DNA from: Escherichia phage VTCCBPA_322
DNA: 64,000 bases
Direction: 5' to 3' (one strand)
Sequence record: PP989839.1
Positions 724 to 28,420 of this stretch are shown here, piece by piece. The notes beneath the pieces are model-generated. The model was not told where the DNA came from. It saw nothing but the letters and a program-made list of their open reading frames with translations, and made no database searches. The translations under genes and the position numbers were made by a program. Positions within the stretch are counted from its first letter, which is position 1, and every line of letters begins with the position of its first letter.

Positions 724-3021
724 ATGAACGAAATGTTCTCGCAAGGTGGCAAAGGCTCCACTGGTATTCTTACCAATAAGCAAGCTATTGCCCGTCATTT
801 TGGTATTAAGCAATCCGAGGTTCTTTACTTCTCTGTTGGTGCTGTATTAGATGGTTATAAAGTCATTTATGACAAGTCCACTCAAAGGAGTTATTCCTTA
901 CCTGCTGGTATTCCATCTGGCACTACTGCTATTAGTCTAAGCACTGCTGCTGTACTTGTACACTCAGCAGGCAGTGAGGACTTAGGTACTTTGGCTGCTA
1001 CTCGTAAGGAATTTATAACTAAGCAGGAGAACTTTAATACAGGCTTTACTATTAGTACCCATAATGAGCAAGTAGTTACTCCTGGTGGGGTTTACTACTG
1101 GGCAGGGTCTTTACCTAAAGTTGTACCTCCTGGTTCCTCTATTGAGGAAACTGGTGGGGTGAATGCTACTGCATGGGTTAATTCATACTCCAATGCTGTC
1201 TTATGTATTAAGGATTTGCTGACACATCCACAGGGTGGCACAGTTAGTGTGGTTGGTTACATTTCTGGTACGGACTTTGGTGGTGGTGATTTTTACTGGG
1301 ATGCTACTCGTCCACGTAGTAAACATAATGGTATTACAGTATTCAGTCCTACTGTTCCATTTAGTGGTTTATATACGGATATACCGAATTTCCATGCTAA
1401 GGTTGGAGAGACTGCACCTGATGCCAATGGTTGTTGGGTGCGTAAGGACTGTGGTCGTAAAGTTCTAATGTCATGGGGTGGTGTAGATATTTCAGGCACT
1501 CAGCCAATGGATGCCGTAGTAACAAGTATGTGTACTTATGTGCATAATACTCGTCAGATTTTGGATGCTGATGAGAATGCTGTACTTAAGGCAGGGTTTA
1601 CTACCGGTACTCAGACCAAAGATAAGCACAATGTGTTTACCCAAGCTTCTGTAATCTTAGAGGGTAAGTATGTCACCATTCGTGGTAATGGGGCTAAGAT
1701 TGATACATATCACCCTGTCCACAGAGAACGTTCTGTATTTGTTCTTCGTAATGGTGGGTATAACATTTCTGGTTTTAAATGGAATGATGGGTACACTGAC
1801 TTTAGTACTTCCCCTACGGATACCCAGCACAAACAAGGTGAATGGTGGATGGGTATTGTTGCAGATGGTGCAGTTACTTTAGTAGCTGACCACCATGAAG
1901 TAACTGCTTCTCAGGTATTTGTACGAGCAGATGCATTTAATGCTACGGACTGGAATGAAAGAGTAACTGTACGGTATAGTAAGTTTGACTACATTACTAA
2001 CTACTGTTTCCTTAGTCGTAAGCTGAAACATTATGAGTTCAGCTACAATGAGGTTAAACACAATGGCCGTGAGTGGCATACTTATGGGGAAGCATGTGCT
2101 CCAACCACATACACCACACATACTATTATACGTAGTAATAACTTCTTCAATCAGATCGCAGAACAATCCTGTATTACTCCTGGGTCATACCATAAGTCCT
2201 GTCTGATTGTTAATAACCATTGTGAACGCTATCGAGGCATTTTCGTTGAGATTGGTTCTTCCAGTAATATCAGCATTCTGAATAACTACTCTTATTCCAG
2301 TGGTGAAAGGGATAGTTCTCATATCCTACTTGTATCTGGTGGGGTAGATGACGAACCAGAGGGTGGTTTGAATAACTTGTTGATTAACGGTAATGTGTTT
2401 GAGAGTGGACCGTATACGCTGCGGGAGTACAACACTGGTACTCCAGTTCGCAGAGGCATTACATTCTCTAATAACCACATTATTGATTGCCCTATGCCTA
2501 ATATGGGTAATGCTGCTTACCACTCAATGGCATTTACCAATAACTACTGCCAGCCACCAGCAGACTTCCCGTATCTGGTATGGGCAGGTAAGAATCCAAT
2601 TATTGAAGGCAATACTTTTGTTGGTGGGGTTATTCGTGCTAGAGATCTGGGTTATACCATTACTAACCCAATCATTCGTAATAACGTATTCCGTGATGGT
2701 AGTACTGTTCAGACATTCCCTGCATTAATTGATATGACTGACTTTACCCGTTTAGTTGCTGAGGGTAACGATGTAACTAATGCTACCTTTACTCGTGTAA
2801 TTGTTGATCCAGCCAACTGTACTTCGGTCGGGTTTAAACGTATTGGGCAGGCAGAGGGTTTTGAATCTAACCCAGCTACCTTGTATGGTGCTAAACTTAC
2901 GGATGTAATTAATGGTGATATTGTGATGAACAATAACCCAGGTAATGCTGAAGGTGGTTACGCATGGGTATGCGTAAATTCTGGTTCTAAACAATTTGGT
3001 AAAATTGTCGTAGCTGTGTAA
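724..3021 (+). CDS. tailspike / tail fiber with right-handed beta-helix (pectate-lyase-like) domain, putative depolymerase
   Basis: ATG with GAAGAGG RBS; 765 aa; Asn-rich rung segments (NNHCERYRGIFVEIG, NNLLINGNVFESG, FSNNHIIDCP, IRNNVFRDG) typical of parallel beta-helix tailspikes; strong terminator downstream. Confidence 0.65.
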   Translation: MNEMFSQGGKGSTGILTNKQAIARHFGIKQSEVLYFSVGAVLDGYKVIYDKSTQRSYSLPAGIPSGTTAISLSTAAVLVHSAGSEDLGTLAATRKEFITKQENFNTGFTISTHNEQVVTPGGVYYWAGSLPKVVPPGSSIEETGGVNATAWVNSYSNAVLCIKDLLTHPQGGTVSVVGYISGTDFGGGDFYWDATRPRSKHNGITVFSPTVPFSGLYTDIPNFHAKVGETAPDANGCWVRKDCGRKVLMSWGGVDISGTQPMDAVVTSMCTYVHNTRQILDADENAVLKAGFTTGTQTKDKHNVFTQASVILEGKYVTIRGNGAKIDTYHPVHRERSVFVLRNGGYNISGFKWNDGYTDFSTSPTDTQHKQGEWWMGIVADGAVTLVADHHEVTASQVFVRADAFNATDWNERVTVRYSKFDYITNYCFLSRKLKHYEFSYNEVKHNGREWHTYGEACAPTTYTTHTIIRSNNFFNQIAEQSCITPGSYHKSCLIVNNHCERYRGIFVEIGSSSNISILNNYSYSSGERDSSHILLVSGGVDDEPEGGLNNLLINGNVFESGPYTLREYNTGTPVRRGITFSNNHIIDCPMPNMGNAAYHSMAFTNNYCQPPADFPYLVWAGKNPIIEGNTFVGGVIRARDLGYTITNPIIRNNVFRDGSTVQTFPALIDMTDFTRLVAEGNDVTNATFTRVIVDPANCTSVGFKRIGQAEGFESNPATLYGAKLTDVINGDIVMNNNPGNAEGGYAWVCVNSGSKQFGKIVVAV

Positions 3022-3024
3022 ACG

Positions 3025-3050
3025 AAAGCCCCCAATTAAGGGGGCTTTTC
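3025..3050. terminator. intrinsic terminator shared by tailspike gene (+) and opposite-strand ORF (-)
   Basis: AAAGCCCCC-AATTAAG-GGGGGCTTT stem-loop followed by TTTTCC on plus strand; A-run gives U-run on minus strand. Confidence 0.7.
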
Positions 3051-3500
3051 CTATATGGAGTTCACTGTTTGCATTACCCTGACTGACACTGATGTTAGGG
3101 TAATTACTTGACCTGAGATATTGAACATACCCAGCTGGATACCATCTACCATAAACGGGTCTGTTGAACCGAGTGTGTAAGTAGCTAATACATTATCTCT
3201 GTTAGCAATGTCCGTACCTTGTACCTTAACACTAGCGTCTGAACCCACTATCGTAGTTCCATTGGTTCGCCTTGTTTGTGTTCTCCATTCCCTAGCTGTA
3301 CCAGCACCTCCTGCAATAGTTCCTGAGATACGTACACTAAACATTACCTGGGTATTTCTGGTTCTAACAGGAAACTTAAGATTACCCTCTTCAATTGTTA
3401 GTGCTGCTGTACCTCCAGGAGTTTTAGTCATGCCTGGTAAAGCAAAGTAATTGAACCAGGACTGGTCATTTACTGCCTGGTTCCCTGTCCACGTATACAA
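3051..3500 (-). CDS. hypothetical protein encoded opposite to the late module
   Basis: 450-nt stop-free frame (chance unlikely); TTG at 3500 or ATG at 3431 as start, neither with a strong RBS; Gly/Thr-rich product. Confidence 0.35.
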   Translation of the reverse strand: MYTWTGNQAVNDQSWFNYFALPGMTKTPGGTAALTIEEGNLKFPVRTRNTQVMFSVRISGTIAGGAGTAREWRTQTRRTNGTTIVGSDASVKVQGTDIANRDNVLATYTLGSTDPFMVDGIQLGMFNISGQVITLTSVSVRVMQTVNSI

Positions 3501-3520
3501 GTCCAGAAGGAAAGTATCTT

Positions 3521-3676
3521 CTAACTCGGTTGGGGGAAAGGTAGCAGTTCTGGTGGGATCTCTGAGATGTTATTAGCAGAAACTATTCGTTCCCCATAAC
3601 TTCCCACGACCAACAATCCTCCCTTCATTTTGCATACAACATCCTTACCACTTTGGAAAATATCTTTAATAGACAT
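3521..3676 (-). CDS. small hypothetical protein (51 aa)
   Basis: ATG at 3676 preceded by GCGAGGT RBS at 6-nt spacing; directly upstream of ORF 3051-3500 in a different frame. Confidence 0.35.
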   Translation of the reverse strand: MSIKDIFQSGKDVVCKMKGGLLVVGSYGERIVSANNISEIPPELLPFPQPS

Positions 3677-14868: not shown

Positions 14869-15312
14869 ATGGATTTGTCATTCTTAACAGGCAACCAAAC
14901 TCCACAGCCAGCTGCTATGTCTTGGATGTCTAATAACAATCAGAACTTTAATACCCCGGCTATGAACTATGTACCTGGTGCAACTATTGGTATGGGAGCA
15001 AATACAGGAGTAGCTTCTCCTACCTCTTTCCTGTCTGGTTCAGCTAATCAGTTGGGTTTGAATGTACCCACCTTCCAACTAGGCTTAGGTGCACTTGGTT
15101 CATTAGCGAATATCTATAGTGGTTTCCAGGCTAATAAGTTAGCCAAAGACCAGTTGAACTTTACCAAGAGTGTTACTAACACTAACCTGAATAATCAGAT
15201 TAAGTCTTATAACACTGCACTGGAAGACCGTGCTCGTAGTCGTGCTACAGCAGAGAACCGTGACCAGTCTACTGCTGATGCTTATATTGCAGCTAATAAA
15301 TTAACCCGTTAA
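14869..15312 (+). CDS. hypothetical virion protein
   Basis: ATG with AGGAG RBS; 147 aa Asn/Gly-rich. Confidence 0.5.
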   Translation: MDLSFLTGNQTPQPAAMSWMSNNNQNFNTPAMNYVPGATIGMGANTGVASPTSFLSGSANQLGLNVPTFQLGLGALGSLANIYSGFQANKLAKDQLNFTKSVTNTNLNNQIKSYNTALEDRARSRATAENRDQSTADAYIAANKLTR

Positions 15313-15324
15313 TAGGAAACCATC

Positions 15325-17289
15325 ATGGCTCAAATTACATGGCGTAATGTTGATGCACCCAACTTCTCTGGGGTTGGTGACAGCATTCGCACATTTGGCA
15401 ACATGATTGGTAACGCCACCTCCGGCTTAAGTGATGCACTGGGTAATTTCCAGAACGCTGCCAAGCAGGAGGCTGGCAATGCCGTCATGATGAATGCTAT
15501 GCAGTATCAAGACCCTACTGAGTATCGCAATGCTTTAGCATCCGGTGCACTGTTTCAGGGGGTTGACCCTTCACTGGTAAACCAACGTACTCTCCAGAAT
15601 CTGGATGAGCGAGCAGGCACACTTCTGACCCAACAAGGTCAGCAGGGAACCAATGACTATAATGCTTATCGCTTTGGTCGTTTACAGGATACTAATGCTG
15701 CATTAGATAGTGCTTCCCCAGCTATTCGTTTACTGTCTGAGGCTTATCAGTCTGGTGACCAGAATCGTATTAATGCTGCATTGGGTCAGACGCGTGAAGC
15801 GTTATCTGCACTACCTGCTGACCAACAACTGGATATGTTGAGTCGTCTACAAGGACAAGGTGGTCAGGCTATCAATCAAGCACAGAACCGTTTTGATTTA
15901 GGCGTGGCTCAACGTAATGATGCAGATAGTCAGGCAGCTATGGGTGTAATGTCTCAAATTACCCGTGGTGCTGAGAACCCCAATGATGCTCGTTTGCTGG
16001 CAGAAGCATATAGTAAAAACCTGTCCCCTGTTGCACAGGCACGTTTACAGGAAATGCTCGCTCGTGCATACCCGGGTGTCTATGGCAATAATGTTGGTGC
16101 TACATCTGCTCCCGGTACTGCTGGTACTCGTCAGGGTTCCCCTTATGATGTTACTTATCAGTTTGCTGGTACATCTACTCCTATTACTCAAATGAGTATT
16201 GGTGATGTAATTAAACACCAGGATGTTATGAAGACTAATCAGGGTGCTTCCCCTGTTGGTGCATTCCAGATTAACCAAGCTACCTTGAAAGACTTTGCCC
16301 CCAAAGTTCTTGGTTCAGATTGGCAGAACCAACCTCTTTCTCCTGAGAACCAGGAGAAGATTGGTAAGGCTATTTTTGAGGCTCGTAAGAATGGTAACCT
16401 TAAAGATACCTGGGCTGCTTTACCTAACTCTACCCCTGGTGCTTATAAGGATATGACTTGGGAACAGATTAAACCTGTTATTGCCCAAGCTGAAGTAGGG
16501 GCTGACCCATTCGCTCTGATTCAGAATAATCAAGGAAATCAGGCAGTATCTACCTTGGCTCAGGGTATGATTGGTACACGTTCTATGCAGGATAACACCG
16601 GTAGTCTTAATACCGATTTCCTGGGTACTGTCACCGATAATACTCCAGTAGGTGAGATTGCTAATCGTCTACTGGATGGTGACTTTAAGGGTGCTGACCG
16701 TAACTGGGTACTTAACCGATTAACTGATATTTCTCAACGTGGGAATATGTCTCCAGCTATGGCTGCTGCTGTTATGCAACGTGCACAGACTGGTGTACCG
16801 GAAGGTTATATTAGTCGTGCTATTGATGCGGTTAACCCATTCATTACCAACGAAGCCGGTAATGGTATGCGTCTTAATGACCGTCTGGTAGATCAGTTAA
16901 TTGAGGGTGTACAACGTGGTGAACCACTGGAAGGCAGTGTGCGAAACCTTGGTCGTGCTCAAGCTATGCAGAATATTCAGGCAGCACAGACTGCTTATGA
17001 TGCTGCTGTAGCTGCACTGACAAATACCCAGAACAAGATTAACACCGGACAAACCGGTCTTACTGCATTGTTACCCGCACGTCAGGAAGCTGTTACTAAA
17101 GCTGCTGCAATGCTTCAAGCTGCACAAGCCCAAGTACAAGCAGACCCAGCTAACCTGGCTCCAAGAGGTTTTCGGTCACAGGCTAGTGTGGACAGAGCAC
17201 GAGCCAAGGAAGATGAAGAACGTGCTGCACGTTACCTACGTCAGGCACAAGGTTTGCCTGAGTATATGCAACCAAGACAAAATCGGTAA
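15325..17289 (+). CDS. virion protein (N4 gp51-like position), Gln/Ala-rich
   Basis: ATG with AGGAAA RBS; 654 aa; directly upstream of vRNAP gene; strong terminator downstream. Confidence 0.55.
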   Translation: MAQITWRNVDAPNFSGVGDSIRTFGNMIGNATSGLSDALGNFQNAAKQEAGNAVMMNAMQYQDPTEYRNALASGALFQGVDPSLVNQRTLQNLDERAGTLLTQQGQQGTNDYNAYRFGRLQDTNAALDSASPAIRLLSEAYQSGDQNRINAALGQTREALSALPADQQLDMLSRLQGQGGQAINQAQNRFDLGVAQRNDADSQAAMGVMSQITRGAENPNDARLLAEAYSKNLSPVAQARLQEMLARAYPGVYGNNVGATSAPGTAGTRQGSPYDVTYQFAGTSTPITQMSIGDVIKHQDVMKTNQGASPVGAFQINQATLKDFAPKVLGSDWQNQPLSPENQEKIGKAIFEARKNGNLKDTWAALPNSTPGAYKDMTWEQIKPVIAQAEVGADPFALIQNNQGNQAVSTLAQGMIGTRSMQDNTGSLNTDFLGTVTDNTPVGEIANRLLDGDFKGADRNWVLNRLTDISQRGNMSPAMAAAVMQRAQTGVPEGYISRAIDAVNPFITNEAGNGMRLNDRLVDQLIEGVQRGEPLEGSVRNLGRAQAMQNIQAAQTAYDAAVAALTNTQNKINTGQTGLTALLPARQEAVTKAAAMLQAAQAQVQADPANLAPRGFRSQASVDRARAKEDEERAARYLRQAQGLPEYMQPRQNR

Positions 17290-17345: not shown

Positions 17346-17383
17346 TTCCTATATACGATATAAGTTTGAACAGGAAACATGCT

Positions 17384-20300
17384 ATGTCAACATTTGACCG
17401 TCTGGCAGGTTTCGCAGACAGCATCACTAATGCCAAGCAAGTCGATGTCTCTACTGCAACCTCTCAGAAGCAAGCTGCACAAGGGCAAAGCCCTTTCCAA
17501 TTAACCCCAGAGAATGCTTACAATCTCCAAACTGGTCGTGTAGGTAATCTTGGAATCGGTGCATTCGAACCAGGTTCACTTCAGGCAGATTTCACTCAAG
17601 CCTCTCCATTAGAAATTCTTAATAAATACGGTAATGAGCAAGGTCTACAGATTCTTAATAGCCGAGCTAATGCTGCTGATGTTGTACGTCAGGACTTATC
17701 TAAGCAACGTACTAACGCAGAAGCATTTGGTGATACTCTTTCTGGTGTTGGTCTTGGTGTTGCTAATACCCTTGGGGGCATTGCTGCTCTTGGCACAGGT
17801 CTGGTCAATGATAATGCCGGGGCATCCATTGCTTCCGGGATGGATTGGTTGAATGAAGGTGTACACAATCTACAGTCTGATGCACTGAATGCTACCCGTA
17901 AGGTTGTTCAGAATCAGAACCTGATTTCTGCACAAAAGAACCAGAAACTTTATGAAGAAGACATTAAGAATGGGGAGAGCAGTTTGGTTGCCTCCTTGTC
18001 TCGCATTGGTCGTGACGCTTTTGATTCCGTTGCTAATACACTTGATAATGGTATGGCTGCCACCGATGGACTGAGTGAAGGTGTTGGTTCCCTCTTTACT
18101 GGTGGTCCACTTATCCGTGGTGTATCTGCACTTGGTAAAGTAATGGTAGGTGGTGATAAAGCTATTAAAGGTATTACCTTAGCTGCTGAGTTAGGTTCAC
18201 GCCCTGCACAGGTTGCATTGTCTGCTGGTCGTGTTGCTGCACCTGCTATAGCAATTGGTGGTATGGAAGCTGGTGGTGCATACCAACAGACTGCTTCTGA
18301 AATCATGAAGATGTCCCATCAAGAATTAGCAAGTAAGTCTCCTGTTTATCAACAACATATTGCTGATGGTTTATCCCCTGATGAAGCTCGTCGTCAGACT
18401 GCATCTGAAACAGGTATCGTTGCTGCTGGCTTAACTGCTCCGGTTGCTGCTGCTACTGGTCCACTGGTATCCAAATTTGAACTCAACCCCCTTAAAGTAG
18501 GTTCACTGGCTGGTGCTGGCTCTAACATGCTACGTGAGACTGTAGAAGAAGGTATCCAGTCCGGTACTAGTCAGTTTGCACAGAACAAAGCAATTCAGGG
18601 TAATGTAGATGCTAAGCGTGATTTGCTTAAAGGTGTCGGTGAACAAGCAGGTCTTGGTGCACTTTATGGCTTCGGTAGTGCTGGTGTTGCTCAGGCTCCA
18701 GGTGCAACTGTTAAAGCTGTTGGTGCTTCTGCTGGGCCTGCTTTACGTACTACTCTGGCTGGTGCTTCTCTGGTTGGTAGTGCATTAGCAAAAGCTGCCT
18801 CTCCTATTACTAACATCCTGGTTCAACGTGGGGAAGAAGTTGCTAAGCGTAATGAACAAGCATCTCCTGTATCAGACGCTACAGTTAACGCTGCTGCACA
18901 AGAAGCTACTGCTCAGGCAGAACAAGCACAAGCAACTGTACAGGAAGCAGTAGATGCAATGGATATTTCTCCTGAAGAGAAAGCTGCTGCTACTCAGTAT
19001 GCTGCTGACTTAACTCAGGCAATGAAGTTTGACCCAGTAGAGTTAGAGCAAGCTAATCCAGCAATCCGTGAAGCTGTTTCTGGTTCCACTAACCGTGTAG
19101 AAGCTATTCAGAAGATGGCTGACCTGGTTAATACTGCTGAAGACCCTAACGTTCAAATGGAAGCTGCAATCCAGATGTATGACAACATCATGTCTATGGA
19201 TAGCTTCATTAATCGTGACCCGGGTGCTTTGGCTAATCTGGAACAGGGTTCTCCTGCTGCTAATATTGTTGACCAGTTCTCCGGTCTGATGGCTAACGTA
19301 CAGAATACTCCAAAGGTACTTCGTGCATTCCGTGCCATCCATTCTATGATTCAGGAACAGGCTGAAGCAGGTAAGTTAAAAGCTACTGAAGAAGCTAATC
19401 AAGCCCAAGCAAACAACATTGCTATGGCTGCTGATATGTCTCCAGAAGTATTGGATGCAGATTCAGTGAACATGGTTCTGAAACATGCAAGTGAAGGTAA
19501 GATTACACTGGGTAATCGTCAGCGTGCTGCCTTGCAATCTGCTGCTGCTTTATTACAAGGAGCACGGGAATTTGACGCTAAAGCAGAAGAACTGGGCTTA
19601 CGTCCTCAGGACATTGTTAGTAAACAGATTAAAACCGACGAATCTCGTTCTAATGAAGGTCAGTACTCTGCGTTGCAACATGCTAAACGCATTCGTTCTG
19701 CGTACAACTCTGGTAACTTCGATTTGGCTTCCGCTTATCTCGACGACTTTATGAAGTTCGCCCAGCACATGCAGAATAAGGTCGGAGCGTTGAATGAGCA
19801 TCTGATTTCTGGGAATGCGGATAAGAATAAGTCTGTCCATTATCAGGCTCTTACTCCCTCCCGTGAATGGGTACGTAGTCGTACTGGCCTCGGTGTCAAT
19901 CCGTATGATACCAAGTCGGTTAAGTTTGCCCAGCAAGTAGGACTGGAGGCCAAAACCGTAGCTGATATTGCTAATGCACTTGCTACGGCTTACCCGGAGC
20001 TTAATGTTTCTCATGTGAAGGTTACCCCATTAGATTCACGTCTGGACAAGCCTGCTGCCCAGGTGGTTAAAGAGTTCCGTCAGGGCAATCTTGACGCTGC
20101 TCAATCCCAACAGACCAATGAACCAGTGAATCAGGTTGATAAATCTCCTGCACCTGTGCAAGAGGCCACTACTACTGTACAGCCTAAAGCTAAACTAGTG
20201 GTAGAAAATAAGACTGTTCCTGTTAAGGAGACTAGTTCAAAAGCAGAAGAAGTCTCTACTACCGAATCCGAAAGGGATGCTTATGTGAAAGAAAATACTA

Positions 20301-23300
20301 TTTCACAGGACATCCTCAATAAGAGCGGTGATCGTAGAGAGAGTCCTTGGCTCTTTGCTGATGGTACTGTTGTTGGTTCTAACGGCGATCACATTAGCCT
20401 GTCCGATGTATTTGGTCACGATGGCTATCGTGATATGTCTTTGGATACTGGTGCTGTACGTTCTACTTTCTATAAAGGCAGTGAGCAACCATTCGTATCT
20501 TTGCAACTTTTTGATAATCAGAAGCTAACTACTGAACAATTCAATACTGTTCAATCATTCGTAGAAGCAAACAATGCACTGATTCAGATTGGTGTAGATA
20601 CGTCTGGGCGTAACACCAATAACGTTGAGAAGATAGAAGTATCACTGGCCCAACTGAAAGCAGACTATACCGTTGGTGGTAAACCCCTGTCTGAGATGGA
20701 AACAGTGTTCCCTGTCTATAACAATGACAAGACACCGAACCAGTTCCTGAAAGCATTTACCCTGCCGGAAGAACCTAAGTCTCGCACCATTGGTTCTGAA
20801 TCCCCTTTGACTGATGTTAAGCAAGCACTGTCTTCTGCTGCTCGCTTTGAAGCATTCACTCAAAAAGAAAATAACGCTCTCACAAGTGATGTGATTAAGC
20901 GTTATCAGGACTTAATGGACTTTGGTGAAACTCTGAAGACTACTTTGTCTGACCGTCTGACTAAGTTTCTTGCTAATAAGAATGTTGGTAAACGTTTTGC
21001 AGAAGGTACTGAGGCTAACCGTTGGGTAGGTGGTAAGTTACTTAACATCGTAGAGAAAGATGGGGATACCTTTAAGTTCAATGACCAGTTGTTAGAGACT
21101 GCTGTACTTGCTGGTCTGCAATGGCGACTTACTGCTACACAAAATGCTGCTGTTAAAGATATGAAAGACGTAGCTGCTATTACTGGAGTAGAAGCATCCT
21201 TGTTACCTGAAGGTATCCTGGCTGAATTTGAGAATGCTCAGACTCTGGTTGAAGCTACTAACTCACTGGCTCAAAAGATTGAATCTTACTGGGGTCTGAA
21301 TCGTAATCCTAATGCACCTCTGGGTTATACCAAAGGTATCCCAATGGCAATGGCTACAGAGATTCTGTCTTCTTTCATTGAGATGGGTGAAGTTAAAGAA
21401 TCTATGCTGGATGTGTCTGAGTTTGACCCAGCTTCTAATAAGACTGTTGGTCTGTATACTATTGAGAAACTGGATGATAATGATGCCATTAACAAATTCC
21501 CTACTGCTATTGAGGAAGCTGTCCTCGTAGAACCAGAAGAGAAAATGTACTTTGGTGATGATATTCCTTCCGTGGCTCAAACACAGTTACGTAATCCTGC
21601 TGTTAAGAATACCCCAGAGCAGAAAGCTGCTCTTAAAGCAGAACAGGCTACCGAGTTCCGTGTACACATGCCTATGGTTAACTTCTATGAAGCATTAGGT
21701 CGTGACAACATTCTGGAACTGATGGGTGCTGGTACTCTTAATCCTGAACTGCTGAACGTGAATACTGCTAAATCATTGGAAGGTAAAAACCTGTCCGTGT
21801 CCATGGCATATGATTCCTTGTTTGGTGTAATCAATCAATTACAGGAACAGGAGAATGGTCTGGATACGCCTATTCACTATGGTTACAACATGACCCGTGT
21901 AGGTCGTATGCAGATGCTTGGTAAGAACAACCCACAATCCAGCAAGCTGGTTCGTGAAGCAATTCTGCCAACCTTCTCTACTATTGACTTAAGTAATGAA
22001 AATAGCCAAACGTTCTCTGACTTCCAGTTAGGTCTGGCTCAGGCATTGGGCATCAAGGTTCATAATATGTCCCGTGAAGCTATGTCTGAAAAACTGACCA
22101 AAGCTCTGGAAGGTAATTTGAAACCTGCTGTTGATATGATGGTTGAGTTTGATAAGTCCGGTCACTTACCTGCTGATGCAGTAGATATTCTGAAGACATC
22201 TCTGGGTGGTGATAAATCATTCGTAGCTCTTATGGCTCTTATGGAATATGCCCGTTACCTTAACAGTACTGACCGTGCTAACTTTAATACCCCACTGTAC
22301 GTTGAAGCCGATGGTGTAACCAACGGGCCAATCAATGCAATGGTATTAATGACCGGTGGTAAGTTCACTTCGGATTGGATTAAGAATACTGCTAAAGGTG
22401 GTTTGTTCTTCGGTAAAGCTGGTAAGACTATGAACGAACACCGTTCACAGGATGACAGTGTTGACTTGTATGAAGCATCTACTAATGGTCTGCAACAAGC
22501 ACTAAATGAGTTACGTACTACTTACCGTAATAATGTTCCGGTCATGAACCAGATGAATCATCTTCAGAAGTTAATGGACCTGTTCATTAAAGACTTTAAC
22601 CTGAACGAAGACGGTACTTTGGACCTGAAACGTGGTATCGCTAAAAACCCACTGACTATTACCATCTATGGTTCTGGTGCTCGTGGTATTGCTGGCAAGA
22701 TGGTTAGTGCAATTACTGACACCATCTATGAACGCTTCAGTGATGTTCTGCAAGCTCGTGCTGCTGACCCTAGCATTTCCCCAGCTATGGCAATGTTTGG
22801 TAAGGAGGCTGCGTCTGAGGCTAATGCTCAGGCTATGCTGGATACTTTCCTTACATCTATGGAAGCACTGACTGGTAATGTTCCAGTTATGCGTAAAGGT
22901 CAACTGTCTATTCAACAGGTAGAAGGTGCTCTGACTGGTAAGTTAGACCCACAGAAATTTACTGTATCTGGTAATGCCCTGAAGAACTTACAAGAGAACA
23001 TGCTTCACCTGTTCGTTGAACCAATGCGTACTGGTATCCGTAATACTGTTGGTGAAGGTCTTATGCATTCTACTGAGAACTTGCAGAAGGCTACCCAGAT
23101 TCAGTCTTTGGTTCTGCAAGACATGTTCCAACAAGCAGTACAGGCTAAGCTGGCAGAAAAAGAAAAAGACCCAACATGGAAGAAGGGTGATTTCTTAACA
23201 CAGAAAGAACTTAATGAAATCCAGGAATCATTATCTCCACTGGCTCCAATGATTGAGACTGGTTCACAGACTTTCTACATTGCTGGTAGTGAGAATACTG

Positions 23301-26300
23301 ACGTTGCTAACCAAGTTCTGGCTACCAACTTAGATGATCGTATGCGTGTGCCAATGAGCATCTATGCTCCTTCACAGGCAGGCGTTGCAGGTATTCCATT
23401 TATGACCATTGGTACTGGCGATGGCATGATGATGCAGACCCTTTCTACTATGAAAGGTGCTCCGAAGAATACCCTGAAAATCTTTGATGGTATGAACATT
23501 GGTATCGACAACATCACTGATGCAAGTCGTAAAGCTAACGAGGCTGTATACACTTCCTGGCAGGGTAACCCTATCAAGAATGTCTACGACTCCTTCTCTA
23601 AGTTCATGAAGAATGTAGACTTCAGCAAACTGTCTGATGAAACCAAACAGGCTATCGCTAAATCTGCTCTGGAATATGACCAGCGTGAAGGTGCTACCGA
23701 TGACCTGTTACGTGTTGGTGCTGAACAGATTGAACGTAATCTGCGCAACATTGCTCTGGGTGTGGATATTCGCCACAAAGTAATGAACCAGGTACAGACT
23801 ACTGTTGACCAGATGGCTGCTGTAGGTGCTCCTTATGTGAACAACGGTAAAATCTCTCTGGAAGGTCTGACTGTAGACCAGCAAGTAGCTAAGCTGAACG
23901 AACTGTTTGATGCTGAGTTAAACAAGCGTCGTGATGCAGTACGTGCTGCTAAAGCAGAACCAGTGAAAGAAGTACCAGCAATGGAACAGGTTGGTCGTGT
24001 ACTGAAGTCTGGTGTACGTCTGCTGTCTAATACTGCTATCTCTAAGCTGGCTAAAGAGATGTCTCCGGAACAGCAAGCGGTACTGAAAGAAGTACAGAAA
24101 TCCCTTGCTGCTAAAGACTACAAAGTTGTTTATGGTACTCCTGCTCAATTAGATGCTTATGCTATTGAGAAGAATATTACTCGCCCAGCACCAGAAGATA
24201 TTGAAGCTGCTGAAGCAGGTAATGCATACGGCTGGACTAACTTTGATGATAAGACTATCTACTTAGTTACCCCTTCCTTGGAGACTCTGGTTCATGAATT
24301 GGTACATGCTTCTACTTTCGAATCTGTACTGGCTCATTATGAAGGTACTCCAAATGAAGCAGTCCAAAATATTGAAGACTTAATGAATCAGTTCCGTACT
24401 CTGGATGTTAAGGATGAATCTCCGGCAGTACGCGAAGCATATGCAGATGCTCTTAATACCATTAATGGTCATTTGTCTAATGGCTTCATTGAACCAGCAA
24501 TGGCTAAAGCTGCTGCACTTAACGAGTACATGGCATGGGGTTTAACTAACCGTGAACTAATTAGCAAGCAGAAGAAAACTACTGCACTGAAGACTATGGT
24601 TCAGGCTGTGTATGAAGCAATCAAGCGTCTGGTATTCGGACGTAAGAAAGCTCCCGCTAATGCAGATGATATGTTCTCTGGTTTACTATTTAACTCTGCT
24701 GTAGTTATGCGAGGACAAGCTCCTACTGCTGCTGTAGCCAAGGATACTACTCTGTTCCATAACAAAGCATACGGTGACAATACTCGTCTGGAAGAGCTAG
24801 GGAAAACCTTCGATAAACTGATTACAGACTACATTGGTTCAGAACCAGTACAACAAGTAATTCGTAAGGGTAAATTCTCTGATGCAGTAGTGAATGCAAC
24901 TAAAGTAACCCGTGATGTTCAGGCTCATGGCTTCACTATGAATATGCAGGAACAGCGTCTATTCACTAACATCGTTGCTGCTCTGGCTACTGAAGCTGCC
25001 ATTAGTCCTGCTGCCCTGGCTCGTGCACAGGAATACTATACGCATGTTACTAAGAACCTGACCGTTGAATCGTTCATGGCTGACCCGGATAGTACTAACC
25101 CTGCTGACCGTTACTATGCTCAACAGAAGTTCGATACCATTATGGGTGCTAACAATATTGAGTTTGATGCACAGGGCCGTTCTTCCTTACTGCCTACCTT
25201 TGTTGGTCTGGCAATGGTAAGTGAAGAGGTACGTAAAGTACTGGCAGACATTCCTGTTATGAAAGCAGATAAGCAATCCGGTAATACAGTTGATGCAATG
25301 CTGACTAACATTGGTACTGCTGCAATGGCTAGTCTGAATGCTCGTGTAGCGGGTGATACTAAGGCTACCAATGTACAGGAAGGTATGGATGCACTGGCTC
25401 AGACAATCATGCAGACGAGTCTCAATGCACAGTCCTTCTATGATTCCGTTGCTACTCCTAGTGGTAATGCTATTGACCGTGCTAACCAGTATCTGGTGGA
25501 TTCTATTGATGCATTGTCTACCCGTGCTTTAGAAGGTGCTCGTGAAGTTGCAGCTAATACCAAGAACCCGTTGGTTAAAGGTGCTGCTCATGCTGCACAA
25601 CTAATAGCTGCTATTGCTACAGAGAAGAATGGTGAAATCGTAGCTGAAGGCGTTATGGCTGCAATGAACCAGGGTAAAGTGTGGCAACCTTTCCATGACC
25701 TGGTTAATGACTTAACAGGCCGTACTAAGAGCAATGCTTCTGTATACGATTTGATTAAGGCAGTACGTGCACAGGTACAAGCTGACCGTCAACAGTTCCG
25801 TGAACATTTGCCTACCACTATCGCATCTAAGTTCAGCCGTAAGCTGACTAATGATGAATGGAAAGCAATGCATACTGGTATGGGTAAAACTGACTTAGCT
25901 GTTTTACGTGACACTATGTCTCTGGCTGAAATTCGTGACTTGCTGACTGACCAAAAGATTGTTGACCGTGAAGTGAATAAGCTGGAAGCAGACTTACAGA
26001 AACAAGCTGGTCGTAACTGGCCTCTGATTAGCCGTAAATCTAAGCAACTAGCTCAGTACATGATTAACGGTACAGTTGGTAATAACCTGCTGCGTAATGC
26101 TACAGCAATCTCTCGTATGCTGGGTGAACGTCAGGCTGCACGTTCTACTGTAGATGTAGCTCAACTGGATAAACTGATTACTCTGTATGCACTGGAAGCA
26201 ATGAGTAAGACTGACCGTGAGATGTTATCTTCACTGGCTCAATCAGAAGTTGATGGAATTGATTTTGCTACTTCTTACCTGGTTGGTCAGCGTAAAGATG

Positions 26301-28096
26301 AAATGGCTAAAGCCAAGTCTGACATGCGTGCAACCCTGAACCAGTACAAAGGTTATATCCCAAGTGAGACTAAGCAAGGTGTTAACCTGATTGTTGCTGA
26401 AGACAGTCAATTTGCTGATTTGATTGAGAAGTCTTATGTACGTCTGGGTACTTATCAAGGTAGTTCTGCTAATCGTGGTTCAGCACGTAGCTACTACTTC
26501 GCACCGGTACAGGCACAGGCTCCATTCTCACAGGGTATTCTACAGAACGTTCGTAATACTGCTGGTGGTGTAGACCTTGGTACAGGATTTACGATGGGAA
26601 CCATGGTGGCTGGTCGTATTACTGACAAGCCTTCTGTAGACCGTATCACTAAAGCACTGGCTCGTGGTGAACGAGGTAATGAGCCACTGATGCCTGTATA
26701 TGATGACAAAGGTAATGTAGTTGCTTATGAACAATCTATTGACCCTAACATGCTGAAGCACATTGAGGGTGAGAACCATCTTGCTCGTGCAATCGGTGTA
26801 TGGCGTGGTCGTCAGGTGGAAGAAGCTAAGGCTCAGCGTTTCAACGATATGCTAATTGAGAATCTGCATAGCATGTATGAGAACGACATTAAGATGTCTG
26901 CCTCTAATAAGTCCCAGTACGTTAACCTTCTTGGTTCTAAGCTGGACCCAGTAACTGCTGATGCCCTTAAGCTGATGAACAGTGAAACACGTCAGAAAGC
27001 AGAAAGCCTGTTTGGCGAAGGTGAACTGTGGGTTCGTCGTGACATGCTGAATGATGCACTAGGCTATCGTGCAGCTTCCGTTGGTGATGCCTGGTCTGGT
27101 AATTCTCGTTGGTCCCCGGAAACACTGGATACCTTTAAGAAAGCTATGCTTGGTGTGTTCGGCAACCGTGCCTACAAGTATGTAATGGGTGGTGAGAACC
27201 TGGTTCAGAACTTAGTTAAAGAAGCTAAGACTCTGATTGTAGTTAAATCAGTGGTTGTACCTGCTGTTAACTTCCTGGCTAACCTTTACCAGATGGTTGG
27301 TCGTGGTGTACCCGTTAAGAACATTGCTAAAAGCATTCCACAGAAGACTGCTGAGATTAACCAGTACCTGAAATCTCGTCTGCGTCAGGTAGACGCAGAA
27401 GCAGAATTACGTGCAGCCACTAACCCGAACCAGATTCGTAAACTTAAGGCTGAGATTCAGTCTATTACTGACAGCCATAAGCGTATGAGTATCTGGCCTC
27501 TGTTAGAAGCTGGTGAGTTCTCTTCAATTGCAGATGCTGGTATTGGGCGTGATGATATCCTGATTACTGAGGGTAAACTCCATGAATACATGGATAAACT
27601 GGCTGATAAGTTACCTAAGTCTGTACGCAACGCTGGACGTTATGCACTTATCACCAAAGATACTGCTCTCTTCCAGGGTATCCAGAAGACGGTTGAGTAC
27701 TCTGACTTTATCGCTAAAGCAATCATCTATGATGATTTGACTCAGCGTAAAGGTAAGACTCGTGAAGAAGCACTAGGACGTGTAACGGAGGAGTTCATTA
27801 ACTATGACCGTTTGCCTGGTCGCTTCCGTGGGTATATGGAAAGTGTTGGTTTAATGTGGTTCTACAACTTTAAGATTCGTTCTGCGAAAATTGCAGTATC
27901 CATGATTCGTAACAACCCGGTACATGCAGCTATGGCTATGTTGGCTCCAACTCCTACCATGTTTGGTAACGTTGGTTTACCTATTCAGGACAACATCTTC
28001 AGTATTGCTGCACAAGGTAATCTTGGTTACTCCTGGGGCTTCGGTCAGGGCTTACGTGCCCATAACCTTAACCCTTGGCTCAACCTCACTAACTAA
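17384..28096 (+). CDS. virion-encapsidated giant RNA polymerase (N4 gp50-like vRNAP)
   Basis: 3570-aa ORF (ATG 17384 with AGGAAA RBS; track start 17366 is TTG); central region has T7-like polymerase motifs: DG near PLYVEADGVTNGPINA, motif B-like KNPLTITIYGSGARG, motif C-like KIFDGMNIG; hallmark of N4-like phages. Confidence 0.9.
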   Translation: MSTFDRLAGFADSITNAKQVDVSTATSQKQAAQGQSPFQLTPENAYNLQTGRVGNLGIGAFEPGSLQADFTQASPLEILNKYGNEQGLQILNSRANAADVVRQDLSKQRTNAEAFGDTLSGVGLGVANTLGGIAALGTGLVNDNAGASIASGMDWLNEGVHNLQSDALNATRKVVQNQNLISAQKNQKLYEEDIKNGESSLVASLSRIGRDAFDSVANTLDNGMAATDGLSEGVGSLFTGGPLIRGVSALGKVMVGGDKAIKGITLAAELGSRPAQVALSAGRVAAPAIAIGGMEAGGAYQQTASEIMKMSHQELASKSPVYQQHIADGLSPDEARRQTASETGIVAAGLTAPVAAATGPLVSKFELNPLKVGSLAGAGSNMLRETVEEGIQSGTSQFAQNKAIQGNVDAKRDLLKGVGEQAGLGALYGFGSAGVAQAPGATVKAVGASAGPALRTTLAGASLVGSALAKAASPITNILVQRGEEVAKRNEQASPVSDATVNAAAQEATAQAEQAQATVQEAVDAMDISPEEKAAATQYAADLTQAMKFDPVELEQANPAIREAVSGSTNRVEAIQKMADLVNTAEDPNVQMEAAIQMYDNIMSMDSFINRDPGALANLEQGSPAANIVDQFSGLMANVQNTPKVLRAFRAIHSMIQEQAEAGKLKATEEANQAQANNIAMAADMSPEVLDADSVNMVLKHASEGKITLGNRQRAALQSAAALLQGAREFDAKAEELGLRPQDIVSKQIKTDESRSNEGQYSALQHAKRIRSAYNSGNFDLASAYLDDFMKFAQHMQNKVGALNEHLISGNADKNKSVHYQALTPSREWVRSRTGLGVNPYDTKSVKFAQQVGLEAKTVADIANALATAYPELNVSHVKVTPLDSRLDKPAAQVVKEFRQGNLDAAQSQQTNEPVNQVDKSPAPVQEATTTVQPKAKLVVENKTVPVKETSSKAEEVSTTESERDAYVKENTISQDILNKSGDRRESPWLFADGTVVGSNGDHISLSDVFGHDGYRDMSLDTGAVRSTFYKGSEQPFVSLQLFDNQKLTTEQFNTVQSFVEANNALIQIGVDTSGRNTNNVEKIEVSLAQLKADYTVGGKPLSEMETVFPVYNNDKTPNQFLKAFTLPEEPKSRTIGSESPLTDVKQALSSAARFEAFTQKENNALTSDVIKRYQDLMDFGETLKTTLSDRLTKFLANKNVGKRFAEGTEANRWVGGKLLNIVEKDGDTFKFNDQLLETAVLAGLQWRLTATQNAAVKDMKDVAAITGVEASLLPEGILAEFENAQTLVEATNSLAQKIESYWGLNRNPNAPLGYTKGIPMAMATEILSSFIEMGEVKESMLDVSEFDPASNKTVGLYTIEKLDDNDAINKFPTAIEEAVLVEPEEKMYFGDDIPSVAQTQLRNPAVKNTPEQKAALKAEQATEFRVHMPMVNFYEALGRDNILELMGAGTLNPELLNVNTAKSLEGKNLSVSMAYDSLFGVINQLQEQENGLDTPIHYGYNMTRVGRMQMLGKNNPQSSKLVREAILPTFSTIDLSNENSQTFSDFQLGLAQALGIKVHNMSREAMSEKLTKALEGNLKPAVDMMVEFDKSGHLPADAVDILKTSLGGDKSFVALMALMEYARYLNSTDRANFNTPLYVEADGVTNGPINAMVLMTGGKFTSDWIKNTAKGGLFFGKAGKTMNEHRSQDDSVDLYEASTNGLQQALNELRTTYRNNVPVMNQMNHLQKLMDLFIKDFNLNEDGTLDLKRGIAKNPLTITIYGSGARGIAGKMVSAITDTIYERFSDVLQARAADPSISPAMAMFGKEAASEANAQAMLDTFLTSMEALTGNVPVMRKGQLSIQQVEGALTGKLDPQKFTVSGNALKNLQENMLHLFVEPMRTGIRNTVGEGLMHSTENLQKATQIQSLVLQDMFQQAVQAKLAEKEKDPTWKKGDFLTQKELNEIQESLSPLAPMIETGSQTFYIAGSENTDVANQVLATNLDDRMRVPMSIYAPSQAGVAGIPFMTIGTGDGMMMQTLSTMKGAPKNTLKIFDGMNIGIDNITDASRKANEAVYTSWQGNPIKNVYDSFSKFMKNVDFSKLSDETKQAIAKSALEYDQREGATDDLLRVGAEQIERNLRNIALGVDIRHKVMNQVQTTVDQMAAVGAPYVNNGKISLEGLTVDQQVAKLNELFDAELNKRRDAVRAAKAEPVKEVPAMEQVGRVLKSGVRLLSNTAISKLAKEMSPEQQAVLKEVQKSLAAKDYKVVYGTPAQLDAYAIEKNITRPAPEDIEAAEAGNAYGWTNFDDKTIYLVTPSLETLVHELVHASTFESVLAHYEGTPNEAVQNIEDLMNQFRTLDVKDESPAVREAYADALNTINGHLSNGFIEPAMAKAAALNEYMAWGLTNRELISKQKKTTALKTMVQAVYEAIKRLVFGRKKAPANADDMFSGLLFNSAVVMRGQAPTAAVAKDTTLFHNKAYGDNTRLEELGKTFDKLITDYIGSEPVQQVIRKGKFSDAVVNATKVTRDVQAHGFTMNMQEQRLFTNIVAALATEAAISPAALARAQEYYTHVTKNLTVESFMADPDSTNPADRYYAQQKFDTIMGANNIEFDAQGRSSLLPTFVGLAMVSEEVRKVLADIPVMKADKQSGNTVDAMLTNIGTAAMASLNARVAGDTKATNVQEGMDALAQTIMQTSLNAQSFYDSVATPSGNAIDRANQYLVDSIDALSTRALEGAREVAANTKNPLVKGAAHAAQLIAAIATEKNGEIVAEGVMAAMNQGKVWQPFHDLVNDLTGRTKSNASVYDLIKAVRAQVQADRQQFREHLPTTIASKFSRKLTNDEWKAMHTGMGKTDLAVLRDTMSLAEIRDLLTDQKIVDREVNKLEADLQKQAGRNWPLISRKSKQLAQYMINGTVGNNLLRNATAISRMLGERQAARSTVDVAQLDKLITLYALEAMSKTDREMLSSLAQSEVDGIDFATSYLVGQRKDEMAKAKSDMRATLNQYKGYIPSETKQGVNLIVAEDSQFADLIEKSYVRLGTYQGSSANRGSARSYYFAPVQAQAPFSQGILQNVRNTAGGVDLGTGFTMGTMVAGRITDKPSVDRITKALARGERGNEPLMPVYDDKGNVVAYEQSIDPNMLKHIEGENHLARAIGVWRGRQVEEAKAQRFNDMLIENLHSMYENDIKMSASNKSQYVNLLGSKLDPVTADALKLMNSETRQKAESLFGEGELWVRRDMLNDALGYRAASVGDAWSGNSRWSPETLDTFKKAMLGVFGNRAYKYVMGGENLVQNLVKEAKTLIVVKSVVVPAVNFLANLYQMVGRGVPVKNIAKSIPQKTAEINQYLKSRLRQVDAEAELRAATNPNQIRKLKAEIQSITDSHKRMSIWPLLEAGEFSSIADAGIGRDDILITEGKLHEYMDKLADKLPKSVRNAGRYALITKDTALFQGIQKTVEYSDFIAKAIIYDDLTQRKGKTREEALGRVTEEFINYDRLPGRFRGYMESVGLMWFYNFKIRSAKIAVSMIRNNPVHAAMAMLAPTPTMFGNVGLPIQDNIFSIAAQGNLGYSWGFGQGLRAHNLNPWLNLTN

Positions 28097-28097
28097 A

Positions 28098-28128
28098 TGA
28101 AAAAGCCCCTCTAATGAGGGGCTTTACT
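28098..28128. terminator. bidirectional intrinsic terminator at convergence of late (+) and early/middle (-) transcription
   Basis: AAAGCCCCTC-TAAT-GAGGGGCTTT 10-bp stem; U-run on minus strand (TTTTTCATTT), weaker on plus. Confidence 0.75.
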
Positions 28129-28386: not shown

Positions 28387-28420
28387 GAAAGCCCTCACTA
28401 GGAGGGCTTGTTTTGTTTTG
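28387..28420 (+). terminator. hairpin with plus-strand T-run inside minus-strand module (antisense-blocking or bidirectional terminator)
   Basis: GAAAGCCCTC-ACTA-GGAGGGCTT followed by GTTTTGTTTT on plus strand. Confidence 0.4.

Follow-up and report, generated by a model that had tools for sequence, protein, structure and literature searches.

Virion RNA polymerase and its conserved zincin-like domain in a G7C-like Gamaleyavirus coliphage

The vRNAP gene and its domain layout

We analysed a window of 64,000 nucleotides from Escherichia phage VTCCBPA_322 (PP989839.1), in which a 10.7-kb plus-strand gene encodes one very long protein (Table 1). The closest phages by nucleotide identity (~93%) are gamaleyaviruses, and the phage is a G7C-like Gamaleyavirus coliphage. 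PHROG 2206 'virion RNA polymerase' covers aa 25-3569 of the 3570-aa protein, N4 gp50 is collinear with it at 66.5% identity over 3472 aligned positions, and phmmer matches it to the N4 gp50 structures 9PNR and 11GP (full length) and 2PO4. By sequence comparison, the gene is thus orthologous over its full length to gp50 of coliphage N4, the virion RNA polymerase (vRNAP) whose gene is a textbook hallmark of N4-like phages. By this orthology with N4 gp50, we infer that virions carry the protein, that it is injected into the host and that it transcribes early genes from hairpin promoters. The open reading frame, its translation and these matches, together with the four N4 vRNAP Pfam domains, bear out a preliminary description of the locus, which had read it as a 3570-aa virion RNA polymerase of the N4 type.

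The ATG at 17384 is preceded by AGGAAA and gives the N-terminus MSTFDRLAGF, compared with MSVFDRLAGF in N4 gp50. In the ORF listing the same frame opens further upstream, at an in-frame TTG (17366..28096). The gene lies directly 3' of a gp51 homologue, and the order gp52-gp51-gp50 is that of N4. At the other end, a GC-rich hairpin directly follows the stop codon where plus- and minus-strand genes converge, and is a bidirectional terminator-like site. The sign of the GC-skew flips at ~28 kb.

Table 1. Positions of the vRNAP gene, its parts and its neighbours in the window
Feature	Coordinates	Strand	Residues	Remarks
gp52 homologue	14869-15312	+		blastp, 59% identity to N4 gp52
gp51 homologue	15325-17289	+		blastp, 50% identity to N4 gp51
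vRNAP gene, gp50 orthologue	17384..28096	+	3570 aa	end coordinate takes in the stop codon
N-terminal domain (NTD)	17384..20098	+	1 to ~905	N4 NTD 1-906; 60% identity to N4 NTD
Lineage-specific cassette, NTD-polymerase linker	20272..20692	+	964-1103	140 aa, net ~+120 aa
T7-like single-subunit RNA polymerase domain	20693..23947	+	~1104-2188	N4 1007-2101, 'mini-vRNAP'; 71% identity
vRNAP_dom_2		+	1412-1527	Pfam
vRNAP_plug		+	1544-1625	Pfam
N4_RNAP_helical		+	1703-1919	Pfam
vRNAP_dom		+	2001-2145	Pfam
T/DxxGR motif Arg	21905..21907	+	R1508	mini-vRNAP R424; alignment
Motif A Asp	22310..22312	+	D1643	mini-vRNAP D559; alignment
Motif B	22631..22687	+	R1750 x3 K1754 x7 Y1762 G	mini-vRNAP R666, K670, Y678; alignment
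Motif C, KIFDGMNIG	23477..23503	+	from 2032; D2035	D2035 = mini-vRNAP D951; alignment
CTD subdomain C1, zincin-like metallopeptidase (MPTase) domain	23990..24721	+	2203-2446	N4 2124-2375
HELVH	24293..24307	+	2304-2308	H2304 and H2308 predicted to bind zinc, E2305 to be the general base; N4 H2228, E2229, H2232
NEYMAWGLTN helix	24521..24550	+	E2381	predicted third zinc ligand; N4 E2310; conservation, model helix 177-194
CTD subdomain C2	24722..28093	+	2447-3570	71% identity to N4 2376-3500
GC-rich hairpin	28102..28125	.		directly after the stop codon

The domains follow one another as NTD, flexible linker with cassette, T7-like polymerase, a short linker and lastly a C-terminal domain (CTD), which consists of C1 and then the large helical C2. 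The corresponding linkers of N4 cover 907-1006 and 2104-2123. Pfam scans returned no family for the NTD or for C2. In N4 the NTD binds membranes and is required for injection, and the alpha-helical C2 exerts autoinhibition on the polymerase and is needed for encapsidation (PMC13434306, PMC13492108). The cassette is found neither in N4 nor in IME11, although elsewhere the IME11 vRNAP is 95-100% identical, and it occurs only in 28 G7C-like phage records, IME11 differing in this from Bp4 and G7C; it has no match in Pfam, PDB or protein databases. The protein contains no cysteine, as is also true of the N4 and LIT1 proteins and of 132 of the 138 full-length homologues.

Four vRNAP Pfam domains (E-values 1e-29 to 1e-101; PF21624, PF21894, PF21867 and PF21769, among them the N4-specific plug and helical domain) are each far over their gathering thresholds, and matches to the mini-vRNAP crystal structures 2PO4, 3C2P and 3Q0A span aa 1118-2189. 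Alignment with the mini-vRNAP region of N4 gp50, a check named in the preliminary description, places the two polymerase cores in register. It shows that the known catalytic residues of the polymerase, as given after Kazmierczak 2002 in PMC2784036, are all conserved in the window protein. The motif B-like KNPLTITIYGSGARG and the motif C-like KIFDGMNIG singled out earlier both held up: the former lies within motif B, its first residue being K1754 (nt 22643-22687), and supplies the counterparts of mini-vRNAP K670 and Y678, and the latter supplies that of D951.

The HExxH motif and the fold around it

The preliminary description had also pointed to a HELVH sequence at about residue 2300 (nt about 24295-24310), outside the polymerase core. 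The motif sits essentially there (Table 1), ~115 residues past the end of the core (N4 2101 = window 2188), and therefore does lie outside it. HExxH occurs once in the whole protein, whose composition (39 His in 3570 aa) leads one to expect 0.027 occurrences. To judge its conservation we used homologues gathered by tblastn against phages and from a representative library; a protein-database search with the C1 region yielded two fragments only. In all 151 homologues that cover the site, which are representatives of 50%-identity clusters and are 26-65% identical to the window C1, the motif is invariant and is therefore not a chance match. Lack of conservation among homologues, which the description had named as the outcome that would count against the motif, was thus not what we found. 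HExxH is likewise present in 16/16 sequences of a named-phage (Schitoviridae) alignment that includes N4 together with 14 other named phages and covers at least six subfamilies and several genera without subfamily assignment. Exactly one HExxH is found in 129 of the 138 full-length homologues, and the median of its relative position is 0.635.

The pattern extends to gp71 of the very distant Pseudomonas phage LIT1, which has both HExxH and an ELV[AS]WG[LM]T sequence. Our A1 profile does not find this protein under the default bias filter of hmmsearch and matches it only marginally with --max (E = 0.005), and LIT1 is counted as a member because the motifs are collinear, not because of the profile score.

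A near-invariant Glu follows HExxH by 60-75 residues, within a helix of the form (N)E-F-M-A-W-x-L-x-N. Across the homologues, conservation reaches 98% for E2381, 94% for N2380, 94% for W2385, 96% for L2387 and 97% for N2389, and we predict that E2381 provides the third zinc ligand. We had also considered E2331, 23 residues after H2308 and so at a thermolysin-like spacing; it was dropped in favour of E2381 because it is only 87% conserved, with Q, R or L replacing Glu.

Several shorter homologues have a Met start near domain borders and a normal vRNAP C-terminus; one of them (P0144, 1346 aa) begins ~80 residues ahead of its HExxH. They could reflect a natural splitting of the gene between Pol and CTD, or artefacts of contig edges or gene calling.

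An AF2 model of C1 built from a 42-sequence alignment reached a pLDDT of 91.3, compared with 53.5 for single-sequence AlphaFold. It contains strands at model positions 53-56, 89-92 and 97-100, followed by a helix (105-125) that holds HELVH at 110-114 and a second helix (177-194) that holds the Glu. The model thus places a beta-sheet ahead of the predicted active-site helix and resembles solved zincins, the two features by which we recognise a zincin fold. Fold searches return lethal-factor- and PPEP-type zincins, lethal factor being the first non-self match in Foldseek. Against the experimental N4 C1 the model has a TM of only 0.55. Among the structural matches in BFVD are internal core proteins, polyvalent proteins and, from crAss, a 'Putative RNAP associated protein fused to zincin protease', and the C1 profile matches an 'internal virion protein' in the PDB (9SFN_G) with both HExxH and ELVAWGLT aligned.

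No Pfam family, peptidase or other, reaches threshold over aa 2203-2446, and a scan of individual members found sub-threshold SprT-like matches in 19 of 42, the best E being only 0.034. The weak sequence matches of C1 fall among peptidases, in the SprT-like, M91 and aspzincin families. Numerous matches of the A1 profile to RSV fusion glycoproteins (E 1e-5 to 0.2) align through profile positions 18-80 only, upstream of the active site, and we regard them as spurious because they vanish with the HExxH-to-Glu core profile (A2).

Taken from the alignments and the model, the HExxH motif is part of a conserved zincin-like fold, C1. The domain and its motif are real but not new, having been described in the literature from 2017 onward. 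Iyer et al. 2017 (PMC5512222) described N4 gp50 aa 2130-2448 as a zincin-like MPTase, for which HHpred gave lethal factor 4dv8 (P = 4e-4). A 2021 review repeated the call and reported that Phyre2 matched a related vRNAP to PPEP-2, and Bellis et al. 2026 (PMC13434306) noted the conserved HExxH in C1 in their N4 cryo-EM work. That and a second 2026 cryo-EM study provide the structure of C1 and show that the polymerase is autoinhibited by the CTD, whose detachment transcription requires.

Possible roles of C1

The overall picture that we favour, and hold to be probable, is that of a virion-packaged N4 gp50-type polymerase along with which C1 travels as a working metal-dependent peptidase. C1 is predicted to give vRNAP a second enzymatic activity, most likely that of such a peptidase, because the predicted zinc ligands H2304, H2308 and E2381 and the general base E2305 come together on a zincin-like fold. 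H2304 and H2308, with E2381 from the later helix, would hold a zinc ion, and E2305 would serve as the general base. Our best guess is that proteolysis would take place during or shortly after ejection; candidate targets are the linkers of the polyprotein itself, partner ejection proteins or a host protein. Full-text literature searches found no published assay of zinc binding or peptide-bond hydrolysis by C1. Constitutive self-processing does not appear to be the role. Recombinant full-length N4 vRNAP from E. coli is intact by mass spectrometry and immunoblot, so self-cleavage of the N4 protein, if any, is not spontaneous.

An unlikely alternative is that C1 is a zincin-derived pseudo-enzyme or a structural metal site that cuts no peptide bond, its fold and motif being kept for folding, for packaging of the polymerase in capsids or for the autoinhibitory contact between CTD and polymerase. 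Arguing for this case, N4 vRNAP is unprocessed and full-length in the virion (PMC5512222) as well as in recombinant form, the roles of the CTD in encapsidation and autoinhibition need no catalysis, and a bound metal in C1 goes unmentioned in the searched text of the two 2026 cryo-EM papers. In addition, the residue 7 positions ahead of the predicted Glu ligand is an Ala (A2374). In lethal factor and PPEP-1, a catalytic Tyr occupies this place. Counter to this, HExxH is gone from dead zincin copies such as LF-N, whereas in C1 the general-base residue E2305, which would be superfluous for a purely structural site, is invariant in 151/151 homologues despite their divergence. LIT1 and an unrelated internal virion protein likewise keep the motif pair intact.

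Within the peptidase reading, we consider it unlikely, though worth stating, that C1 is a latent protease that becomes active only after threading through the tail and refolding, and then cuts its own linkers or a host protein. A cut could fall, for example, at aa 2189-2202, in the Pol-CTD linker immediately upstream of C1, and would free the polymerase from autoinhibition by the CTD or from the membrane-anchored NTD. Alternatively, cleavage of a host protein would favour early transcription. If true, this would add a proteolytic step to the model of N4 ejection and early transcription, which now has none.

There is very little to commend the idea that the motif belongs to a non-peptidase metalloenzyme, such as an iron/alpha-ketoglutarate HExxH hydroxylase. 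HExxH alone leaves the chemistry unspecified, and Bellis et al. cite this class, alongside radical SAM proteins, where they note the motif (PMC13434306). Fold searches point instead to lethal-factor- and PPEP-type zincins, the sheet, HExxH helix and Glu helix form the zincin arrangement of Iyer et al. (PMC5512222), and even the weak sequence matches are to peptidases. The coincidence that the preliminary description had entertained is the least credible reading of all: a five-residue pattern may arise randomly in a very long protein, but the expected number here is far below one, the motif persists in the 151 homologues and LIT1, and the zincin-like fold around it is confidently modelled.

We therefore return to C1 as a probable working peptidase, and to the question that is at stake, whether proteolysis is part of the delivery and activation of a 380-kDa enzyme. 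All known members of a widespread family of phages retain an intact protease-like active site, and a module of the C1 type recurs in the ejection proteins of unrelated podophages.

Relation to known systems

The nearest system is N4 gp50 itself (2PO4, 3C2P, 9PNR with the 2.8 A map EMD-71769, 9PNQ, 11GP), with which the window protein shares length class, domain order, catalytic residues, the absence of cysteine, an equivalently placed HELVH (at 2228 in N4), subdomains C1 and C2 and the upstream gp52 and gp51 genes. It differs in being 70 residues longer and in carrying the 140-aa linker cassette. Divergence from N4 is greater in the NTD (60% identity) and C1 (64%) than in the polymerase and C2 (71% each).

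More broadly, N4 gp50 aa 2130-2448 was placed among the zincin-like MPTases of polyvalent proteins (Iyer, Burroughs, Anand, de Souza, Aravind 2017). These have in common a three-stranded sheet, the HExxH helix, a variable insert and a Glu-bearing helix, and, like vRNAP, they are found on proteins that enter the host together with DNA. The vRNAP version forms a clade of its own, with a long two-helix insert and the Glu 73 residues beyond the second His. P1 DdrB is processed before packaging, whereas N4 vRNAP is not (PMC5512222).

Anthrax lethal factor and PPEP are similar to C1 in structural alignments at 7-14% identity, with no significant sequence match. The spacing to the Glu is longer in C1, and the residue at -7 from E2381 is Ala rather than Tyr. 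Given this low identity and the Ala at -7, we regard C1 as LF/PPEP-like in fold and not as a member of the lethal factor/Pro-Pro endopeptidase family, MEROPS M34.

The internal virion or core proteins of podophages (9SFN chain G; phiKMV-like proteins in BFVD) share the HExxHAAT ... ELVAWGLT module. 9SFN_G aa 420-514 match the core profile at E = 4e-4, and the internal core proteins, also ejected via the tail, are BFVD structural matches to C1 at probability 1.0. They are ~1250-1340 aa long and have no RNA polymerase domain, and their likeness to vRNAP is limited to the active-site core. Finally, in the virion RNA polymerase block of crAss-like phages, a zincin protease domain is likewise associated with an injected RNA polymerase. 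The crAss polymerase belongs to the two-barrel, cellular/RNAi type and is not T7-like (PMC13434306), and the BFVD protein resembles C1 weakly in structure (E = 0.06).

An N4-type virion RNA polymerase gene

The window holds a single very long open reading frame, within which an ATG preceded by AGGAAA opens the virion RNA polymerase (vRNAP) gene. The N terminus of the product, MSTFDRLAGF, is almost identical to that of the N4 orthologue, gp50 (MSVFDRLAGF). All three short strings quoted in the preliminary description are present in the translation, and that observation holds as written.

Features of the vRNAP gene and its surroundings
Feature	Residues	Nucleotides	Strand	Remark
ORF from upstream in-frame TTG		17366-28096	+	
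vRNAP from ATG	3570 aa	17384-28093	+	
Linker cassette, NTD-polymerase	964-1103	20272-20692		140 aa; non-repetitive, non-low-complexity
KNPLTITIYGSGARG	from 1754	22643-22687	+	motif B
KIFDGMNIG	from 2032	23477-23503	+	motif C
C1 (C-terminal subdomain)	2203-2446			aligned with N4 2124-2375
HELVH	2304-2308	24293-24307	+	sole HExxH in protein
GC-rich hairpin		28102-28125		just past vRNAP stop codon; T-runs on both strands
GC-rich hairpin, second		28389-28409		after vRNAP stop codon; T-runs on both strands

PHROG 2206 'virion RNA polymerase' aligns with residues 25 to 3569 of the product, which also contains four N4-polymerase-specific Pfam domains between residues 1412 and 2145 (E-values 1e-29 to 1e-101) and matches all N4 gp50 chains in the PDB, the crystal structures of mini-vRNAP (N4 polymerase fragment) and the 2025-26 full-length cryo-EM entries alike. 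Global alignment with N4 gp50 (NC_008720) gives 66.5% identity over 3472 positions: 60% in the N-terminal domain (NTD), 35% in the NTD-polymerase linker, 71% in the polymerase, and 64% and 71% in the C-terminal domain (CTD) subdomains C1 and C2. The mini-vRNAP catalytic residues R424, D559, K670, Y678 and D951, as listed in PMC2784036 (citing Kazmierczak 2002), align with R1508, D1643, K1754, Y1762 and D2035, and R666 with R1750. Thus, the strings first described as motif B-like and motif C-like are motifs B and C, and the proposal of a giant vRNAP with T7-like motifs is borne out. Judged from these alignments, the enzyme is an injected RNA polymerase of the N4 type, and its active site is intact.

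Cysteine is absent from the window vRNAP, N4 gp50 and LIT1 gp71, and from 132 of the 138 full-length homologues among P0003-P0152, each of the others having one. A lack of cysteine is already known for N4 vRNAP, where a connection with transit through tail and envelope is supposed.

The two reading frames directly upstream encode homologues of the ejection proteins gp52 (59% identity) and gp51 (50%), and the N4 order is kept. Downstream, the two hairpins lie where plus- and minus-strand gene blocks converge and the sign of GC skew flips (about 28 kb); their likely role is bidirectional termination. The closest nucleotide records, at about 93% identity, come from G7C-like gamaleyaviruses that infect E. 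coli and Shigella. Annotation of the gene varies in GenBank: it is mislabelled 'DNA polymerase' in U1G, PD205, PBM-2, PBM-3 and UE-M6 (among phage records L002-L015), 'translation initiation factor 2' in phi G17 and 'gram positive anchor domain protein' in ECBP1 (JX415535), and in pSb-1 (KF620435) it is divided into two hypothetical proteins, with the break within C1.

The linker cassette stands in place of about 20 residues of the IME11 vRNAP, which is otherwise 95-100% identical, and is absent from N4. By tblastn it is confined to 28 phage records, every one of them G7C-like, and it has no match in Pfam, the PDB or a 5.8-billion-protein database. Its GC content is 0.41, compared with 0.445 for the whole gene. 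The surrounding linker is otherwise disordered, and the C-terminal end of the cassette coincides exactly with the start of the resolved N4 polymerase domain. The cassette looks like an orphan domain just ahead of that domain.

Conservation of the HExxH motif

In N4 gp50, HELVH occurs at residue 2228, inside the subdomain named C1 by Bellis et al. (PMC13434306). We translated the C1 region from 14 annotated phages spanning Enquatrovirinae, Humphriesvirinae, Rhodovirinae, Demetervirinae, Erskinevirinae, Rothmandenesvirinae and several genera without a subfamily; in all of them the equivalent alignment position reads HE[LMIV][VIL]H. A phmmer search with C1 against 1.84 billion cluster representatives returned 373 proteins at E <= 0.001, and nearly all of the best 150 are 3300-4200 aa long. 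HExxH is present in 151/151 sequences covering the site; 129 of 138 full-length homologues have exactly one, at a median relative position of 0.635. H2304, E2305, H2308 and G2283 are conserved at 100%, E2300 and E2381 at 98%, and an A-x-x-x-N-E-F-M-A-W-x-L-x-N block (2376-2389) at 91-98%. The H-E-x-x-H plus E constellation is universally conserved. LIT1 gp71 (Migulavirinae), too divergent for a significant HMM score, has one HELLH only, followed 60 residues on by HELVSWGMTN.

Six shorter homologues (P0144, P0146, P0041, P0118, P0142 and P0113) have a Met start near domain borders and end in the canonical vRNAP C-terminus (...NPW.N...). P0144 (1346 aa) begins about 80 residues ahead of its HExxH and on that basis would consist of the CTD alone. 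The six may reflect natural splitting of the gene where polymerase and CTD join, or artefacts of assembly or gene calling.

Predicted activity of C1

Iyer, Burroughs, Anand, de Souza and Aravind (J Bacteriol 2017, PMC5512222) used N4 gp50 as a worked example of a zincin-like metallopeptidase, noted that N4 vRNAP is packaged unprocessed, and suggested that it might process itself within the head or once injected, or might attack proteins of the host. A 2021 review (PMC8472413) gives the same domain map and likens a related vRNAP to the Pro-Pro endopeptidase PPEP-2 by Phyre2. Of the two cryo-EM papers, Bellis et al. (PMC13434306) place the motif in C1 without further follow-up and the J Bacteriol 2026 paper leaves it unmentioned; both report the CTD packed on the polymerase, keeping it inactive, and an intact recombinant full-length protein. 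Full-text literature searches found no experiments on C1 activity. The finding of the preliminary description is genuine, and both its account and its interpretation are right, but it was known before. It adds one further gamaleyavirus orthologue to a well-characterised family, and beyond that it points to a sharply testable question: whether the C1 zincin is active, and on what.

C1 is most likely a conserved and probably active zincin domain, predicted to be a peptidase, in which H2304, H2308 and E2381 would bind zinc and E2305 would activate water. Constitutive self-cleavage is at odds with the protein being whole both in virions and when made recombinantly; we therefore favour an activity that would be conditional on ejection and refolding, or directed at another protein. 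A structural or pseudo-enzyme domain is unlikely. Counter to it, E2305 is invariant, which argues for catalysis, as a purely structural metal site needs no such residue. Dead LF-N copies of the zincin fold have lost HExxH, whereas C1 has not. That C1 is specifically a latent protease relieving CTD autoinhibition, or cutting a host target after ejection, is unlikely. A non-peptidase HExxH enzyme is highly improbable. Least credible is a chance occurrence, which the preliminary description had weighed against a second activity, looking to non-conservation as the sign against function: composition (39 His in 3570 residues) predicts only 0.027 occurrences where one is observed, and conservation in the 14 phages, all 151 homologues and LIT1 refutes coincidence.

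Fold and relatives of C1

Single-sequence AlphaFold prediction of C1 was uninformative (pLDDT 53.5); a 42-sequence alignment (A1) gave a model with pLDDT 91.3 and pTM 0.90. In this model, three strands (53-56, 89-92 and 97-100) come before a long helix (105-125) that carries HExxH at positions 110-114, followed by two more helices and a helix (177-194) with E187 (E2381). The order of elements is that of the zincin arrangement of Iyer et al. (PMC5512222): sheet, HExxH helix, variable insert, Glu helix. The top Foldseek hits are N4 9PNT and 9PNR (E about 1e-14), followed by anthrax lethal factor (LF), which is not significant. Superposition of the model on the experimental N4 chain reaches a TM of only 0.55. 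No Pfam peptidase model reached threshold on C1, with SprT-like matches sub-threshold only, in 19 of 42 members. On the model, the fold resembles LF/PPEP-type gluzincins.

Searching BFVD with the model matched other vRNAPs (Roseobacter, Erwinia S6, Vibrio), 'large polyvalent protein associated domain' proteins, phiKMV-like internal core proteins and a crAss-like 'RNAP associated protein fused to zincin protease'. Profile A2, which spans the core from HExxH to Glu, matches PDB 9SFN chain G (E = 4e-4), an 'internal virion protein' of 1337 aa from another phage; in the alignment TVLHEAVHAAT falls on the HExxH helix and KELVAWGLT on that of the Glu. Residues 420-514 of that chain thus hold the same core as vRNAP C1, HExxHAAT ... 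ELVAWGLT. Together with the phiKMV-like structural matches, this core suggests that the zincin module is common to large ejection proteins of unrelated podophages.
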